Part shown: positions 3-16,568 of the stretch, one piece after another
Numbering within the stretch: the stretch's first letter is position 1
Layout: each line of letters opens with the position of its first letter
From: an uncultured Chlamydiales bacterium
Lineage (GTDB): Bacteria; Chlamydiota; Chlamydiia; Chlamydiales; JAAKFR01
Direction of reading: 5' to 3'
Assembly: GCA_963832835.1 (NCBI GenBank)
Contig: CAWHVD010000001.1
Coordinates: 1,619,201 to 1,683,200, forward strand
DNA length: 64,000 nucleotides
Made by a program: the position numbers and the translations under genes
The notes under the pieces: generated by a model
Databases searched by the model: none
Told to the model about the DNA's origin: nothing
Seen by the model: the letters and a program-made list of their open reading frames with translations, nothing else

Positions 3-815
3 GGTGAACAAGACATGGACACTGCTCTTGCCTCTCTTGAAGCCGACAAAGCAGCTCTTAAAGTACTAGAAACATCATTAAGACAGACAATTTACTCTCT
101 TGCTACTCTTTTGGGGCGCCCTCCTGAATCTTTGCTTGAATCTTTCACAATTGCTAGACCCATTCCCGAAGCTATCGGAAAAATTCCTATAGGGCTTCCT
201 TCTGATTTGCTACGCAGGAGACCGGATGTGCGTGCTGCTGAAAGGCGCATTGCCGCGGCAACTGAGCAGATTGGGGTTGCCGTGGCAAGTTTGTTTCCTC
301 AACTTTCTTTAACCGGATCGAGTAGTTCATTTAGCGCTAACCCTCTACAGGGGGCTAATACGGGCTTTGCAAGCAACGCTCTATGCAAACTCTTCACCGC
401 ACCCAGTCGGATTTGGGGGATAGGAGGATTACTCTCGTGGCCCCTATTTGATTTTGGTAAGCGCATAGCCACCATTGATATTCAAGTCTCTTTGGAACAC
501 CAAGCCTTGCTCACCTATGAAAAAACGGTCGTCAGCGCACTACAGGAGGTCGAGAGCGACCTTGTCGCCTATTTTAACGAAGAGGAGCGGTTTCAGAATT
601 TAAATAGCGCAGTTCAAGCAAGCCATAGAGCATTTGATTTGACAGCAGATCTGTATCAAGCAGGACTTGCCAGTTACTCTCAAGTGATACAAGCCCAGGA
701 AATTTGGTTGACTGCGCTTGGTAACTTGACAACCAGCCAAGAAGCCTTAGCTACTAACCTCATTGCTCTATATAAAGCCTTAGGAGGGGGTTGGGAATGC
801 TGCTATACGCCATAA
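3..815 (+). CDS. Outer-membrane efflux channel, NodT/TolC family (3' part; 5' end lies outside window)
   Basis: Reading frame is open to the window edge. C-terminal LIALYKALGGGW is typical of NodT-type outer membrane factors. It overlaps the start of a downstream ABC exporter permease. Confidence 0.8.
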   Translation, partial: GEQDMDTALASLEADKAALKVLETSLRQTIYSLATLLGRPPESLLESFTIARPIPEAIGKIPIGLPSDLLRRRPDVRAAERRIAAATEQIGVAVASLFPQLSLTGSSSSFSANPLQGANTGFASNALCKLFTAPSRIWGIGGLLSWPLFDFGKRIATIDIQVSLEHQALLTYEKTVVSALQEVESDLVAYFNEEERFQNLNSAVQASHRAFDLTADLYQAGLASYSQVIQAQEIWLTALGNLTTSQEALATNLIALYKALGGGWECCYTP

Positions 816-1957
816 AAATGTTGATCGGTGACAGAATCAAATATATCAGTATTGTTATCGGCCTGAGCTTTGCCTCTTTCATTATCTCACAGCAAGCAGC
901 CATCATGGTGGGAATCATGAAAAGGACATACGGATTTGTAACAGACACGTCTCAGCCCAACATTTGGGTGACAGATCCTACAGTACAATACATCGAGGAC
1001 ATTAAGCCTCTAAAAGATACCGATCTGTACCGTGTACGCAGTGTCGAGGGAGTCGATTGGGCAGTACCTATTTACAAAGGAACAATCCAATCCCGTTTGC
1101 GCAATGGCACCTTTCAAACCTGCGTGCTCATTGGAATCGATGATGCTACGCTCATCGGGGCGCCCCCTAAAATACTTGAAGGGAATCTACTGGATTTGCG
1201 CATGGATGATGCTGTGCTTGTGGACCGAGTGGGTGCACAAACCAAATTAGCCTCCCCTCCTCAAGTGAAAGACGGTGCGCGCATCCCGCTACGCGTAGGT
1301 GATACCATGGAGCTCAATGATCACCGCGCCTATGTTGCAGGTATTTGCGAGGTGTCACGTACCTTTCAATCCCAGCCTGTCATCTATACCACGTACGACA
1401 GGGCAACCTCTTTTGTTCCGGCACAGCGCAAACTCCTATCCTTCATCATCGGCAAAGCAAAACCGGGCCTCGATCCTGCAGAGGTGTGCAGAAGAATTGA
1501 AGCCCAAACCGGATTTACTGCTTCTACAAGTGCAGAATTTAAATATAAGACTTTGAAATACTACACAAAATATACTGGTATCGTTGTGAATTTCGGAGTG
1601 GCGATCATTATGGGATTTATCATAGGGACTGCAATTGCAGGACAGACACTGTACAATTTCACTGTCGATCATCTCCCTTATTTTGGGGTATTCAAAGCTA
1701 TGGGAGCGGATAACACGCTATTAGTTAAAATGATCTTCCTACAGTCGCTATTAGTAAGTTGCATAGGATGGGGAATCGGGGTAGGAGCTGCCGCCTTATT
1801 TTATTTTCTTGCAGGACGCACCGAGCTTTCATACAACATGCCGCTGTATCTATATCTATTGAGCGGCTCATCGATTTTATGTATCAGCATTCTTGCAGCA
1901 TTTTTTAGTATGAGAAGAGTGATCAAATTGGACCCGGCCATTGTATTTAAAAGTTAA
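797..1957 (+). CDS. ABC exporter permease, FtsX/MacB (DevC-like) family
   Basis: N-terminal TM helix, periplasmic domain, then a C-terminal 3-TM FtsX-type region. ATG at 797 lies 6 nt after AGGAGGGGG; the track start at 791 is TTG. Confidence 0.8.
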   Translation: MLLYAIKMLIGDRIKYISIVIGLSFASFIISQQAAIMVGIMKRTYGFVTDTSQPNIWVTDPTVQYIEDIKPLKDTDLYRVRSVEGVDWAVPIYKGTIQSRLRNGTFQTCVLIGIDDATLIGAPPKILEGNLLDLRMDDAVLVDRVGAQTKLASPPQVKDGARIPLRVGDTMELNDHRAYVAGICEVSRTFQSQPVIYTTYDRATSFVPAQRKLLSFIIGKAKPGLDPAEVCRRIEAQTGFTASTSAEFKYKTLKYYTKYTGIVVNFGVAIIMGFIIGTAIAGQTLYNFTVDHLPYFGVFKAMGADNTLLVKMIFLQSLLVSCIGWGIGVGAAALFYFLAGRTELSYNMPLYLYLLSGSSILCISILAAFFSMRRVIKLDPAIVFKS

Positions 1958-2021
1958 GCATATTCCTTCAGACTTCTTGATTCATGACAAGGCGGAGCTT
2001 TGCGCCGCCCTGCAATGGCTT

Positions 2022-2184
2022 ATACCATTTCCAGAAAATAAAGCCATGAAGTGGTACTGGGTAACATGACAGATTTGGATGATCGTTTCGAAGCCTATGT
2101 TTTTGCACCTAAGCGAGAAAGGATCGTTCAAAAATGGCGTGTTATACAGTGCCACTTCATGGCTTTATTTTCTGGAAATGGTAT
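2022..2184 (+). mobile_element. 163-bp MITE-like palindromic element, copy 1
   Basis: Terminal inverted repeats ATACCATTTCCAGAAAATAAAG / CTTTATTTTCTGGAAATGGTAT. Near-identical to 7 other copies. Flanked by TTA on both sides. Confidence 0.9.
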
Positions 2185-2891
2185 TAAAAAAATTGGATGG
2201 TATAAAAGTGCTTGAAAGTCCATTAGCTGTTGAGTGCCGATCTGTTAAAAAGACTTATGGATCGGGAAGCTCACGTGTTGAAGCACTCCGAGGTGTAGAC
2301 CTCACTATCCCGCAAGGCGAACTTCGTTTGCTGATGGGCCCTTCGGGATCTGGGAAAACGACATTGATTTCGGTCATCGCAGGCATTTTAACACAAGATT
2401 CTGGACAGTGCATGATCCTGGGTACCGACCTCAATCATCTCTCGGACAAAGACAAAACCCACTATCGTGCCAACCATATTGGATTTGCTTTCCAAATCTT
2501 TAATCTCATCCCCATGTTAACAAACGAAGAAAATGTTTCTATCCCCCTCGTCTTAAATGGTGTGAAAAGAAGCATCGCTTTGGAAAAATCTAAACAACTT
2601 CTGATAGAGCTGGGATTGAGTGATAAATTAGGCACTTACCCCCCAGAGCTTTCCGGAGGACAACAACAACGTGTTGCCATAGCTCGTGCCCTTATCCACG
2701 ACCCCCCACTCATTGTCTGCGATGAACCAACAAGCTTTCTCGATCATAAAACAGGTACCATGATCATGGAGCTCCTACAAGAAATGGTGAAAAAGCGGGA
2801 TATCACCGTAATTGTCGTCACCCATGATCAGCGCATCGTCCCTTTTGCAGACAAAGTCGATTATTTGGAAGATGGCCAAATCACCCCGTAA
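2178..2891 (+). CDS. ABC exporter ATP-binding protein (DevA/MacB-ATPase-like)
   Basis: Walker [10 protein letters not shown], signature [15 protein letters not shown], Walker [10 protein letters not shown]. Start is uncertain. The ATG at 2178 lies inside the MITE tip. In-frame TTG 2193 or GTG 2208 are alternatives. The track start at 2079 is MITE-derived. Confidence 0.85.
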
Positions 2892-3053
2892 TACCATTTC
2901 CAGAAAATAAAGTCACAAATTGGCATTGTATAATACGCCATTTTTGAACGATCCTTTCTCGCTTAGGTGCAGAAACATAGGCTTCGAAACGATCATCCAA
3001 ATCTGTCATGTTACCCAGTACCACTTCATGACTTTATTTTCTGGAAATGGTAT
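2891..3053 (-). mobile_element. 163-bp MITE-like palindromic element, copy 2 (inverted relative to copy 1)
   Basis: Reverse complement of the copy 1 sequence. Flanked by TAA/TAA. The left TAA is the stop codon of the ABC ATPase. Confidence 0.9.
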
Positions 3054-3108
3054 AAAATCGAGCCCAGAGCAAACGCCCTGGGCAATAGGAAGCTGTGTTC
3101 TTATGGAA

Positions 3109-3921
3109 TTAGCGGACAGCTACTTCGTCAGCAGAGATAGTAGCACCGATTTTGGCACTTGGGAAGGCCGATTTCAGGATTTTTTGAGCATCCATCCCTT
3201 TTTGGGCAAGAGCTTCAGCTTTAGTAGCCGAAAAATGGGGATTTTGAATGGGGTTTCCCTCTTTTAAAGACTCAAGGACCATGTAACGGGTTAAATTGAC
3301 CGATGTCTCGACATTTTTAGGCTGAGCCGTGCCTGAGCCAAAATAGCCAGTTTCACGAGCCACTACGTCCCAAGGACGAGAAGTGCGCGCTAAGGCTTTA
3401 TTGTAAGCTTCAGTGCGTTCAATGATGGCTAAAGCAGCCATCGCCTCTTCGGGAAGATGGGTGTCTTCGTATTTAACAGCCAGCGTAGCTTTCAAATAAG
3501 CTTCGATCGGCACTTCATTGACAATGGCTATATGGTTGCCTTTCACATGATAAACAGAGAGCGCACCTTTGTACTGGATTCCATTTACAGAAATGGTGCT
3601 TGATTTGCTAGTTGGAATGATGGAGATCTGGTACACATCGGGATATTCTTCTCCCCAGCGCAGCCCCTGTTGCATCGCTTGCAGCATAAAACGCTTGCCC
3701 ACCGTTCCAAAGCTCAAACTCTTTGATGTGTCTTTGCGGATCACCCGATAACTACCCTTGGCTTCCACTAAAGCTGAGGCCGCATCTTTTTCTAACAAAA
3801 CATGAATCTTAGGCCCAAGCGGCTCCATCTGAGCACGCTTAGAACCTGGCCGGTGCATTTCTGATGCGCCCATTTGTGCAGCAGTTGCTAATACGACTAA
3901 TAAAAGTGTACATACTTTCAT
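3109..3921 (-). CDS. SpoIID/LytB-domain protein (putative peptidoglycan-remodelling enzyme), secreted
   Basis: N-terminal signal peptide. Central VNEVPIEAYLKATLAVKYED...EAMAALAIIERTEAY resembles the SpoIID amidase-enhancer/lytic transglycosylase domain. Lies 7 nt downstream of ruvB. Confidence 0.55.
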   Translation of the reverse strand: MKVCTLLLVVLATAAQMGASEMHRPGSKRAQMEPLGPKIHVLLEKDAASALVEAKGSYRVIRKDTSKSLSFGTVGKRFMLQAMQQGLRWGEEYPDVYQISIIPTSKSSTISVNGIQYKGALSVYHVKGNHIAIVNEVPIEAYLKATLAVKYEDTHLPEEAMAALAIIERTEAYNKALARTSRPWDVVARETGYFGSGTAQPKNVETSVNLTRYMVLESLKEGNPIQNPHFSATKAEALAQKGMDAQKILKSAFPSAKIGATISADEVAVR

Positions 3922-8511: not shown

Positions 8512-8568
8512 TAAACAGTAACATAAAGCTCATCTTAATAAATTAATCCTGTAAAATTAACTATGGTT

Positions 8569-8731
8569 ATACCCTTTCCAGAAAATAAAGCCATAAAGTG
8601 GTACTGGGTAACATGACAGACTTGGATGATCATTTCGAAGCCTATGTTTTTGCACCTAAGCGAGAAAGGATCGTTCAAAAATGGCGTGTTATACAGTGCC
8701 ACTTTATGGCTTTATTTTCTGGAAAGGGGAT
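8569..8731 (+). mobile_element. 163-bp MITE-like palindromic element, copy 3 (tips slightly degenerate)
   Basis: Same sequence family. Tips read ATACCCTTTCC / GGAAAGGGGAT. Flanked by TTA/TTA. Its right end overlaps the last codons of the minus-strand gene 8712-9329. Confidence 0.85.
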
Positions 8732-9329
8732 TACTTAAGATAAAAAAAAGCCCGAGGCTGATCAGCGCAGAGACAAAACACCAAAGGGAAATGAAAAAAG
8801 TGCGATCAATCCAAGCGATCAGGAGAGCGGAAGCGGCAAAAAGGAGGCCAAAATAGGATGTCTTGGGAAGGCTCGAAAGAAAAAAAGGAAATACTGTAGC
8901 AATGACATAACTCGCAAATAGGATGTCGTGGTTGTAAAAGTGGGGTGGATAGGCATAGTAGACACTTGCGCAGCTTATCGAGGCCGTCATATTCGGGATA
9001 GCAAAGCCAAGCATGCTGCTTATGATAAGACCGACCCCAAAGCAGATGGCAAGGGTTTGCTTAGACCAGGAGACCTCTTCTGCAAACCAGAAGGCAAACG
9101 GGATCCAAAGGGGCCAGCCTACAAACGCAAAAAACAGAAAAAGGCTTTTTGCAAAGTCGGGAGCTATGCCCAGCCACAAAAAACCCTCAGCTGCTTGTTG
9201 AATGGCAAAAAGTAAAGGGATCAGAGCTAGCGGCAAGAATTTTTTGTTCTGGGTGCGCAAGACGAGGGTGAGGCCCATCACTGCCAATACAGCAGAGGCT
9301 GAAAAGCTGGCGGTCGCAGAATAGCACAT
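8712..9329 (-). CDS. Polytopic integral membrane protein, unknown function
   Basis: ATG start followed by 5-6 predicted hydrophobic helices. I recognise no catalytic motif. The last ~6 codons and the stop lie inside MITE copy 3. Confidence 0.6.
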   Translation of the reverse strand: MCYSATASFSASAVLAVMGLTLVLRTQNKKFLPLALIPLLFAIQQAAEGFLWLGIAPDFAKSLFLFFAFVGWPLWIPFAFWFAEEVSWSKQTLAICFGVGLIISSMLGFAIPNMTASISCASVYYAYPPHFYNHDILFASYVIATVFPFFLSSLPKTSYFGLLFAASALLIAWIDRTFFISLWCFVSALISLGLFFILSNPLSRK

Positions 9330-13960: not shown

Positions 13961-14122
13961 ATATCATTTCCAGAAAATAAAGTCATGAATTGGTACTGGG
14001 TAACATGACAGATTTGGATGATCGTTTCGAAGCCTATGTTTTTGCACCTAAGCGAGAAAGAATCGTTCAAAAACGGCGTGTTATAAGTGCCACTTCATGA
14101 CTTTATTTTCTGGAAATGGTAT
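13961..14122 (+). mobile_element. 163-bp MITE-like palindromic element, copy 4
   Basis: Same family. Left tip is ATATCATTTCC. Flanked by TTA/TTA. Intergenic between rlmI and the GGDEF-EAL gene. Confidence 0.9.
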
Positions 14123-14333: not shown

Positions 14334-16568
14334 TCAACACTTCACGTGAATGCCATCCTTCAATAAAAGGGTGTAGGCATTTGCATCAATAGGTTTGCTG
14401 AAATAAAATCCTTGCATTTCATCGCACTGATTTTCTAAAAGAAAGCGATATTGCTGTTCAGTCTCAACACCTTCGGCAACCACCTTCATGTTAAGGCTAT
14501 GAGCCATTGAAATGATCGCTAGGATAATAGGGGTTTCAATAGGATCTGTCTCTATGTTCCCAATGAAACTTTTATCTATTTTAAGTTTTGTAATTGGATA
14601 ATGCATCAAGTAATTTAAGTTTGAATATCCTATTCCAAAATCATCAATTACAAAAGAGACGCCCCTATCCCGAAGGCTTTTAAAAATCCCTTTAATTTCA
14701 TCAGAGCTTTCCATCAAAACATTTTCGGTCAATTCAAGCTCCAGATACTTTCCTTCATAGCCTATTTCATCCAAAACTTTCTCAATCATTTTGATGGAGT
14801 CAACATTTTTTACCTGGTATCCAGACAAGTTAACGGCAATAGGAACGAGGGGCAAACCATTCTTTTGCCACTGCAAATTCTGTTCGCAAGCCGTACGTAG
14901 TACCCATTCACCAATAGGAATAATCAATCCTGTCTCTTCAGCAATCGAAATAAATTTCTGTGGTGCGATCATGCCCAGTTGGGGATGCCGCCACCTCAAA
15001 AGGGCTTCTGTTGCCCTGAATGTCTGGGTCTGAACATCCAGGATGGGTTGATAATAGAGGAGCAGCTCGCCCAGCTTATAGGCAAGGATTAAATTTTGCT
15101 CCATGTCTAAAAGCTCTCTCACTTGAGAATTCATATCGTCGGTATAATACTGAAATGTATTTTTACCCATCGCCTTAGCTCTGTACATGGCTGCATCGGC
15201 ATTTTTGAGCAATTCGTCTGCAGTAGTGCCATTTTTTGGGAAAAAACTGATGCCTAAGCTGGGGGTTATGGATAATTGTTGATTATTAATCATAAAAGGC
15301 GTACGGAATGCTTCTTGTATTCTTTTGACGGTAAAAAAAGAAAGGTTTTTGTCCTGCATGCCAGGCAAAATTAAAACAAATTCATCCCCTCCAACCCGGC
15401 ATAGAGTGTCCGATGCTCGTTTACAGCCCAGTAATCTTTCAGCTACCACAGTCAAAAGCTCGTCCCCAAAATTATGTCCCAGACTGTCGTTGACAATTTT
15501 AAAACGGTCCAAATCCAGGAAGATGACGGCAATTTGTGTTTTATCCCTTTCAGCCTGAAAAATCGCCTGCTGCAAGCGGTCGACAAGCAACATGCGATTG
15601 GGTAAATGGGTTAATGGGTCATGGGTAGCCTGAAAGGTAAGCTGCTCTTCAAAATACCGTTGTTCGGTAACATCGCGAAAATTTAATACTCTTCCGATAA
15701 TATGTCGTTCCAATTGCAACGGACGGGTATAGAATTCAAGAACTTTCCCATTTTTTAAATGGAGTTCCAATCTTAATTCACCGTAAGCCGTTTCATCAAA
15801 ATTATAAATTAAATCTTCAAATGTGGGTTTCACAATATGCCCATCCTCCACATTGGAAACGATAAAAGCGATGAACTCAGAAGTATCTTTATGCTTTAGA
15901 ATAGGCTCAATCCCCTCATTGTTCCCTGTCAGATTGCTCCAAAGCTTTTGAAAATTCAGGTTATAGTCAATGATTTTAGATTCCTTGCTGATTACCAGGA
16001 TACCATCGGTTGTCGCTTCAAGAGTTGCTCGAATCTCCGCTGTCCTCTCTTCGACCATCGATTGGAGACAATCGAGCTTAAAACGACTTTGCTGCAATAG
16101 TTTCCATTTTTCTTGTAGAGCACTGGCCAGTTGATGCACTTCAATGCTGTCGAAGGGCTTTTTCAAAATCAGCACGCGGTCGCTCCATCCGAGCCTTTTA
16201 GTCATCTCATGCCACGTGTAATCACTATACGCAGTGCAGATAACAGTCTGAATATCCGAATCAACTGCTAAAATCTTTTCGATTGTCTCAACTCCATCCC
16301 AGCCGGGAGGCATGCGAATATCAACAAAAGCGAGAAAATAAGGGCGCTTCTCTTCTAAAGATTTTTGAACCTTCTGAAGACCTTCCTCTCCTTGGAAGGC
16401 TGAATCAATATCATACTCAGGGGTCTTGGTACTTTGTTCGTTTTCCCCAAAGACCGCTTCTTTTAGGCTACTCAAATGCTCATCGGAAGCTGCCAAAACC
16501 TTGCGGTAATCATTATGGATGTCTTTGTTATCATCAATAATAAGGATACGATTCGCATAAGATTCCAT
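14334..16568 (-). CDS. Response regulator with REC-PAS-GGDEF-EAL domains (putative bifunctional diguanylate cyclase/phosphodiesterase)
   Basis: REC domain (FVDIRMPPGWDG). I-site RASD followed by RVGGDEF. EAL motifs are all intact: EALLRW, ELTE, DDFGIGYS, KIDKSF, AEGVET, QGFYFSKP. ATG directly abuts the upstream kinase stop (TAAATG). Confidence 0.9.
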   Translation of the reverse strand: MESYANRILIIDDNKDIHNDYRKVLAASDEHLSSLKEAVFGENEQSTKTPEYDIDSAFQGEEGLQKVQKSLEEKRPYFLAFVDIRMPPGWDGVETIEKILAVDSDIQTVICTAYSDYTWHEMTKRLGWSDRVLILKKPFDSIEVHQLASALQEKWKLLQQSRFKLDCLQSMVEERTAEIRATLEATTDGILVISKESKIIDYNLNFQKLWSNLTGNNEGIEPILKHKDTSEFIAFIVSNVEDGHIVKPTFEDLIYNFDETAYGELRLELHLKNGKVLEFYTRPLQLERHIIGRVLNFRDVTEQRYFEEQLTFQATHDPLTHLPNRMLLVDRLQQAIFQAERDKTQIAVIFLDLDRFKIVNDSLGHNFGDELLTVVAERLLGCKRASDTLCRVGGDEFVLILPGMQDKNLSFFTVKRIQEAFRTPFMINNQQLSITPSLGISFFPKNGTTADELLKNADAAMYRAKAMGKNTFQYYTDDMNSQVRELLDMEQNLILAYKLGELLLYYQPILDVQTQTFRATEALLRWRHPQLGMIAPQKFISIAEETGLIIPIGEWVLRTACEQNLQWQKNGLPLVPIAVNLSGYQVKNVDSIKMIEKVLDEIGYEGKYLELELTENVLMESSDEIKGIFKSLRDRGVSFVIDDFGIGYSNLNYLMHYPITKLKIDKSFIGNIETDPIETPIILAIISMAHSLNMKVVAEGVETEQQYRFLLENQCDEMQGFYFSKPIDANAYTLLLKDGIHVKC

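Follow-up and report, generated by a model that had tools for sequence, protein, structure and literature searches.

The first gene of an ABC-exporter cluster visible in the window, i.e. the whole 64-kb stretch of DNA that was analysed, codes for an outer-membrane efflux factor and is followed by genes for a permease and an ATPase (Table 1). The permease matched the NCBIfam model devC with E = 1e-21, which is under the curated cut-off. For the ATPase, TIGR02982 (DevA) was the best-scoring of 195 ABC models and was matched over positions 2-219 of 220, with a score of 215.9 bits that lies below the cut-off of 295.8 bits. Translation of the ATPase gene shows Walker A, signature motif, Walker B and H-loop. 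The permease and ATPase genes are 250 nt apart, and 164 nt of this distance are made up of a MITE copy and its target duplication. Both the end of the permease ORF at 1957 and the position of this copy between the two genes, as described in the initial annotation, were confirmed in the sequence. Signalling-type genes elsewhere in the window code for a GGDEF/EAL cyclic-di-GMP protein (14334-16568, minus strand), a PI3/PI4-kinase-like protein (24966-25943, minus strand) and a dual-specificity phosphatase-domain protein (60428-61477, plus strand). The latter two are eukaryote-like, as expected in an intracellular symbiont.

Table 1. Coordinates of the exporter locus, its neighbouring features and all MITE copies in the window.
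Feature	Position	Strand	Remarks
Outer-membrane efflux factor gene (TolC/OEP type), 3' part	15-815	+	Pfam OEP E = 6.8e-25
DevC/MacB-type ABC exporter permease gene	791-1957	+	Pfam MacB_PCD + FtsX
Permease-ATPase spacer, native 5' part	1958-2019	+	Aligns with L001 spacer after MITE excision
Left target duplication TTA, copy 1	2020-2022		
MITE copy 1	2023-2183	+	161 bp, probably element-sense in operon transcript
Right target duplication TTA, copy 1	2184-2186		
Shine-Dalgarno-like GGATGG of ATPase gene	2195-2200	+	Native, 8 nt downstream of MITE duplication
DevA-family ABC ATPase gene	2208-2891	+	From most likely start; Pfam ABC_tran E = 8e-33; stop TAA 2889-2891
Left target duplication TAA, copy 2 (= ATPase stop)	2889-2891		
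MITE copy 2	2892-3052	-	161 bp
Right target duplication TAA, copy 2	3053-3055		
Terminator-like hairpin with T-tract, native, of convergent SpoIID-like gene	3062-3083	-	T-tract extends into copy 2 duplication
SpoIID-domain gene, convergent	3109-3921	-	Pfam SpoIID E = 5e-8
MITE copy 3	8570-8730	+	In 3' end of minus-strand DUF6629 gene
MITE copy 4	13962-14121	+	160 bp, duplication TTA/TTA
MITE copy 5	24542-24702	-	Flanks TAA/TTA, span with flanks 24539-24705
MITE copy 6	30722-30882	+	Duplication TAA/TAA, between convergent genes
MITE copy 7	50567-50727	+	Duplication TTA/TTA, 68 nt upstream of ParA-like gene
MITE copy 8	59794-59954	-	Duplication TAA/TAA

A repeat search in 1500-3600 returned two inverted arms (2020-2186 and 2889-3055) of 167 nt each that are 95% complementary and lie 702 nt apart. 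Within each arm, two 68-nt halves flank a 27-nt centre and make up an imperfect palindrome; these halves are 85% complementary in one arm and 78% in the other. Lining up the flanks of all copies set the boundaries of the MITE body, which comprises 161 bp (160-161 bp across the window copies), runs TACCATTTCC...GGAAATGGTA and carries terminal inverted repeats of about 25 bp with the ends TACCATTTCCAGAAAATAAAG and CTTTATTTTCTGGAAATGGTA. The 22-nt tip ATACCATTTCCAGAAAATAAAG is exact at both ends of copies 1 and 2. With up to 3 mismatches it occurs 16 times in the 64-kb window, compared to 0 occurrences expected in shuffles, and the matches form 8 pairs with about 163 bp between partners, which gives 8 MITE copies in 64 kb. 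These are 90-98% identical to each other, five being oriented one way and three the other way, and every one of them sits at a gene boundary or between genes. The 3-bp target duplication is always T-W-A and is a perfect TTA/TTA or TAA/TAA in 7 of the 8 copies; the flanks of the remaining one, copy 5, are unequal (TAA/TTA). Two subtypes of the 3' arm are found at the exporter locus: copy 1 has CCACTTCATGGC, a type that copies 3 and 4 share with one substitution each, and copy 2 has CCAATTTGTGAC, which is common to four other copies.

No coding capacity could be assigned to the element. ORFs running through it did not match any Pfam family, a 45-aa peptide encoded by it has no homologue among 5.8 billion proteins, and an Rfam search gave no family for it, the sole matches being two tRNAs. 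The element fits every structural criterion of a MITE: it is short and non-coding, has terminal inverted repeats and a fixed-length duplication, and occurs in dispersed copies. The arms that are 95% complementary and the family of eight copies thus bear out the earlier identification of the two repeats as MITE copies in opposite orientation.

The unequal flanks of copy 5 could reflect a point mutation, but homologous inversion involving two inverted copies would also leave such flanks; a partner copy with the reciprocal flank mismatch was not found in the window. Only 13 bp away from MITE copy 8 is a second, unrelated palindromic element (59968-60208; 93-nt arms, 95% complementary, 55-nt centre). 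It occurs once in the window and may represent another MITE family.

Insertion sites of the two copies

After the deposited protein P0001, the closest proteins to the ATPase were 88%, 85%, 77% and 72% identical, and besides P0001 itself no ATPase closer than 88% was present among the 5.8 billion proteins searched. The order of outer-membrane factor, permease and ATPase is kept in the four relatives' loci L001, L002, L003 and L011, and the MITE end is absent from the contigs of the relatives that were fetched. At the junction of permease and ATPase the two genes overlap by 4 nt in L003, the called genes overlap in L002, the genes are 4 nt apart in L011, and a 51-nt spacer separates them in L001, the locus of the 88% identical ortholog. 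Without the element and one duplication (2023-2186, 164 bp) the spacer of the window has 86 nt. In this excised form it is colinear with the spacer of L001 and shows no gap at the junction (CCGCCCTGCAATGGCTTAAAAAAATTGGATGG versus CCGCCTTACAATGTGGAAAAAAAATTGGATGG). Judging from this alignment, the L001 spacer is the empty site for copy 1, and copy 1 inserted into a permease-ATPase spacer that already existed. Since L001 has its 51-nt spacer without a MITE, the spacer, and with it any loss of translational coupling, is older than the insertion. The initial suggestion that the insertion affects coupling between permease and ATPase therefore holds as far as copy 1 splits the spacer, but the uncoupling as such was not made by the MITE. 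A small GC-rich hairpin (GGCGGAGCTTTGCGCCGCC, 1991-2009) also lies in the permease-ATPase spacer, within a 23-nt stretch that is missing from the spacer of L001.

Copy 2 directly abuts the TAA stop of the ATPase ORF. This triplet had been proposed as the target duplication of copy 2, and the same triplet is indeed present on the far side of the element. Excision of 2892-3055, that is copy 2 and one duplication, leaves the protein end ...GQITP and its stop unchanged and joins them to the native AATCGA.... The TAA stop codon was thus the target of copy 2, whose duplication rebuilt the stop and left the protein unchanged. Downstream of the stop there is no homology with L001 or L002, and because of this non-homologous flank the empty site of copy 2 is deduced from the logic of the duplication.

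The effect on the coding sequence was different for copy 3 (8567-8733), which lies inside the 3' end of the DUF6629 gene (8712-9329, minus strand). The MITE terminal repeat encodes the last residues of this gene product, PLSRK, as well as its TAA stop (8712-8714), and removing copy 3 together with one duplication restores an end in ...ILSNHS and a stop. Copy 3 really changed the C-terminus of the DUF6629 protein, unlike the copies at the ATPase gene. An ORF of 115 aa (2920-3267, plus strand) has its start within copy 2 and extends in antisense direction into the SpoIID-like gene; it matched no family and is spurious. Several reading frames are open in the MITE sequence, and gene callers are drawn to it.

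Taken together, two 161-bp MITE copies have very probably inserted independently of each other beside an intact ABC-exporter ATPase gene. We favour this reading because a separate duplication flanks each copy, the copies are of different subtypes and the gene is in its native position. Given 8 copies in 64 kb, two of them lie no more than 869 bp apart by chance with P = 0.55, and a gene is bracketed within 1 kb with P = 0.19 if the copies are confined to the intergenic 8.7% of the window. The bracketing of the ATPase gene is not beyond chance (P = 0.19-0.55).

Alternative readings of the inverted pair

As RNA, copy 1 is predicted to form a near-continuous hairpin of -98.9 kcal/mol (z = -14.6), and a local hairpin of -61.2 kcal/mol is predicted for copy 2. 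In the minimum-energy fold of 1958-3110, the two copies are paired with each other along 163 bp. This inter-copy duplex has a predicted energy of -283 kcal/mol versus -160 kcal/mol for both local hairpins together, and the minimum free energy of the whole region is -509 kcal/mol versus -373 kcal/mol if only pairs within 250 nt are allowed. Pairing of the copies in the mRNA over about 160 bp, as envisaged in the initial annotation, is thus reproduced by the predicted fold. No promoter-like or terminator-like site was found within copy 1 or copy 2 and no plus-strand terminator between the ATPase stop and copy 2, and therefore both copies are probably transcribed together with the operon. All eight copies in the window fold better by 12-25 kcal/mol as element-sense than as antisense RNA, because most mismatches between the arms can form G·U pairs in one of the orientations. 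Selection on the RNA or a mutation bias may lie behind this. The orientation of the eight copies relative to the transcription of their neighbours showed no consistent pattern.

Given these predictions, the inverted pair could be functional instead of neutral, either as a 163-bp dsRNA clamp by which the ATPase cistron is excised or insulated, for instance through cleavage by RNase III, or as a recombination switch that turns the pump on and off by inverting the ATPase gene, but we consider this improbable. The strength of the predicted inter-copy duplex, the missing plus-strand terminator ahead of copy 2, the 95% identity of the inverted copies over 167 nt and the flank mismatch of copy 5, which is as expected after recombination between MITE copies, would all agree with a function. 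However, at this density of copies chance would be expected to produce such an arrangement, copy 1 is able to form its own hairpin during transcription while copy 2 has yet to be made, and translating ribosomes would oppose long-range pairing. There is also no close relative with the pair from which its conservation could be judged. If the pair had a function, the 163-bp dsRNA would loop out the ATPase cistron and provide a substrate for RNase III, by which the ATPase level would be set apart from that of the permease. Alternatively, RecA-mediated inversion of the ATPase gene would make the efflux pump of an intracellular bacterium phase-variable. Inversion between the inverted copies would be possible in principle, as would loss of the DNA between the 22-bp tip repeats in direct orientation. 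A real effect on expression may also exist, the inter-copy duplex being strongly favoured thermodynamically in the predicted fold.

A further alternative concerns the start of the ATPase gene. The candidate start codons in frame are ATG 2079, ATG 2097 and ATG 2178, which lie within the MITE, TTG 2193 and GTG 2208; for the last three, this had already been noted in the initial annotation and was confirmed by reading the sequence. That the ORF caller had been drawn into the element was likewise correct, as the longest ATPase ORF begins at 2079. The deposited protein P0001 (264 aa, from a contig of 2,585,090 bp) begins at ATG 2097, and 37 residues at its N-terminus are encoded by the MITE (2097-2207). 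In contrast, the proposed start at ATG 2178 in the MITE tip did not withstand the comparison with the orthologous locus, which had been named beforehand as the refuting test: MITE-free L001 has the same upstream block AAAAAAATTGGATGG as the window, and its ATG start is aligned with GTG 2208.

The pairing with the anti-Shine-Dalgarno sequence is also best at GTG 2208 (GGATGG, -6.8 kcal/mol, 7-nt spacing), compared to -4.8 kcal/mol at TTG 2193 and -3.1 to -3.3 kcal/mol at the three ATG codons. In the predicted fold ATG 2079 and ATG 2178 are located within the MITE hairpin stem, with P(unpaired) = 0.00 for both. Counted from GTG 2208, the conserved Cys is residue 10 of the protein, as it is in P0002, P0005, P0007, P0009 and P0010, and the match to the DevA model begins at residue 8. 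The ATPase therefore most likely starts at GTG 2208 with its own Shine-Dalgarno sequence, as judged from conservation and predicted pairing. L001 also has TTG 2193 in frame, with a single indel, of 3 nt, between this codon and the aligned start; TTG 2193 is a less likely start and is without a conserved Shine-Dalgarno sequence.

It is very improbable in our view that the MITE has given the ATPase a new start or an N-terminal extension, be it from ATG 2178 or from the annotated positions 2097 and 2079. In favour of it are the open frame from 2079, the greater strength of ATG than of GTG as a start codon and the use of one of these codons in the public database entry; however, the 43-residue extension from 2079 has no family match, and the ortholog ATPases have 224-236 aa with short N-termini. 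ATG 2079 and ATG 2178 also compare poorly with GTG 2208 in accessibility and Shine-Dalgarno pairing (-3.3 versus -6.8 kcal/mol), and the native Shine-Dalgarno sequence is conserved in the MITE-free ortholog. Because the start region is conserved in this ortholog and the ATG codons of the MITE are buried in a stem, we regard the public 264-aa annotation as an artefact.

Least probable of all is that the 1032-bp MITE-ATPase-MITE block is a composite transposon, as proposed initially, which moved or could move the ATPase gene as a unit: although its outermost ends form a correctly oriented pair of terminal repeats, and two miniature elements flanking passenger DNA can mobilise it, as documented for Tn3-derived TIMEs (PMC4133298), a perfect 3-bp duplication flanks each copy separately, the outer flanks of the pair (TTA and TAA) are not a direct repeat, the subtypes of the copies differ, the ATPase gene occupies its ancestral place behind the permease with the same Shine-Dalgarno block as in the MITE-free ortholog, the block was not found a second time, and the protein search returned no ATPase above 88% identity apart from P0001. 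A transposase acting on the outer ends could in principle move the pair; nothing points to past movement.

Two independent insertions, the reading that we prefer, would have come about as follows. A non-autonomous and non-coding MITE of 161 bp with terminal repeats of about 25 bp would be moved in trans by a transposase that cuts at T-W-A and duplicates these 3 bp. Copy 1 would have landed at a TTA in the pre-existing 86-nt spacer, 8 nt ahead of the ribosome-binding site native to the gene, and copy 2 exactly on the TAA stop codon, which the duplication then rebuilt. The ATPase would be translated as an unchanged protein from GTG 2208 with its own Shine-Dalgarno sequence, leaving the ATG codons of the MITE unused. 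The effect on expression would be small or neutral; at most, the long hairpins or the inter-copy duplex in the transcript could alter processing and stability of the mRNA. What the sequences show directly are the anatomy of the element, its duplications, a relative's empty site, an intact gene and a conserved start region.

Relatives of the element and comparison with known systems

The 21-nt terminal repeat was scanned in GTDB genomes (at least 7 loci), JGI metagenomes (3 loci) and IMG/VR (1 locus). Among the matches listed, at least 4 complete elements of 159-161 bp were found elsewhere, two in a Parachlamydiales MAG, one in Ca. Sacchlamyda saccharinae and one on a metagenome contig. They have the same terminal repeat of about 25 bp and unrelated interiors, and all 4 are flanked by a perfect TTA or TAA duplication. 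Together with the eight window copies, 12 elements were examined, and 11 of them have a perfect duplication. The same terminal repeats together with unrelated interiors in other chlamydia-like genomes point to a transposase shared by the group. On this evidence the elements appear as a MITE group of chlamydia-like bacteria that is defined by its transposase and a 3-bp TWA target. A literature search did not retrieve a published description of MITEs in Chlamydiae.

An autonomous partner or a transposase with matching ends was found neither in the window nor at the 7 genome loci listed, the 3 metagenome loci, the 1 viral locus or in PLSDB, where blastn with the MITE gave no match to plasmids. 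Besides MITE-sized or truncated elements, the matches listed from the terminal-repeat scans included only chance single matches (L008, L013, L014 and L015), and no transposase family was matched by the 23 distinct window ORFs scanned. ORFs adjoining single-end matches were considered as parent transposase and rejected; none of them matched, and L010 holds only an IS110-like fragment. At this locus (Parachlamydiales MAG nzgw624; 749-830 and 1150-1428, minus strand), a MITE with the same terminal repeat ends abruptly after about 75 nt and the C-terminal fragment of the IS110-like transposase lies about 330 nt downstream of the broken MITE, which suggests that a second element inserted in the MITE.

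Because the scans yielded neither an autonomous parent element nor a transposase, the class of the transposase and the current mobility of the family are what we infer here. A 3-bp TWA duplication points to a transposase of the IS5 family or of PIF/Harbinger-like type. Taking the duplication by itself as the basis of the assignment, the transposase is likely an IS5/PIF-Harbinger-like DDE enzyme. We also considered a link to the MITEs of amoeba giant viruses and rejected it, since the Pithovirus elements M1 and M2 have a TA duplication and a structure unlike that of the present MITE (PMC10664404).

With a TWA target, TAA stop codons are natural places for insertion, and there the duplication repairs the stop. 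By this targeting and repair of TAA stops, a density of about 1 copy per 8 kb could be reached in a compact, 91%-coding genome without destruction of genes. The main value of these findings is practical, as the MITE family causes wrong gene starts such as that of the deposited ATPase. They describe ordinary transposon biology and leave the knowledge of how MITEs work unchanged. What is new here is a MITE family of chlamydia-like bacteria and an example of a TWA-targeting element that occupies TAA stops harmlessly.

The exporter resembles DevBCA and MacAB-TolC systems in its gene order of outer-membrane factor, FtsX/MacB-type permease and DevA-family ATPase, and a membrane-fusion gene upstream is seen in relatives of the locus. 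It differs from them in that its DevA and DevC scores are below the NCBIfam equivalog cut-offs.

Tourist-like MITEs (PIF/Harbinger) and bacterial IS5-family elements have a 3-bp duplication. The present element shares with them the TTA/TAA (TWA) type of this duplication, the short terminal repeats and the non-autonomous amplification; unlike for these elements, no transposase was found here, and the assignment to a superfamily follows from the duplication alone. Correia/NEMIS of Neisseria, ERIC/IRU of enterobacteria and YPAL of Yersinia are MITEs that are co-transcribed with genes and give long RNA hairpins. They are similar to the present element in their length of 100-170 bp, their terminal inverted repeats, their nearly full palindromic structure and their high copy number. 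Like it, they are intergenic, often within operons or at gene ends, and form hairpins in the mRNA, which in the present case are predicted. In contrast, the terminal repeat of the present element is unrelated to theirs, its host, judged from where relatives of the terminal repeat occur, appears to be a chlamydia-like bacterium, and it is known from sequence alone. The target duplication of Correia elements has been reported as TA, whereas it is a 3-bp TWA here.

Mobilisation of passenger genes has also been documented for MITE-flanked integrons and for integron mobilisation units. As in integron mobilisation units and in TIMEs (PMC4133298), a passenger gene at the exporter locus lies between two copies of a miniature element; here, however, each copy has a duplication of its own and the passenger is in its native place in the operon.
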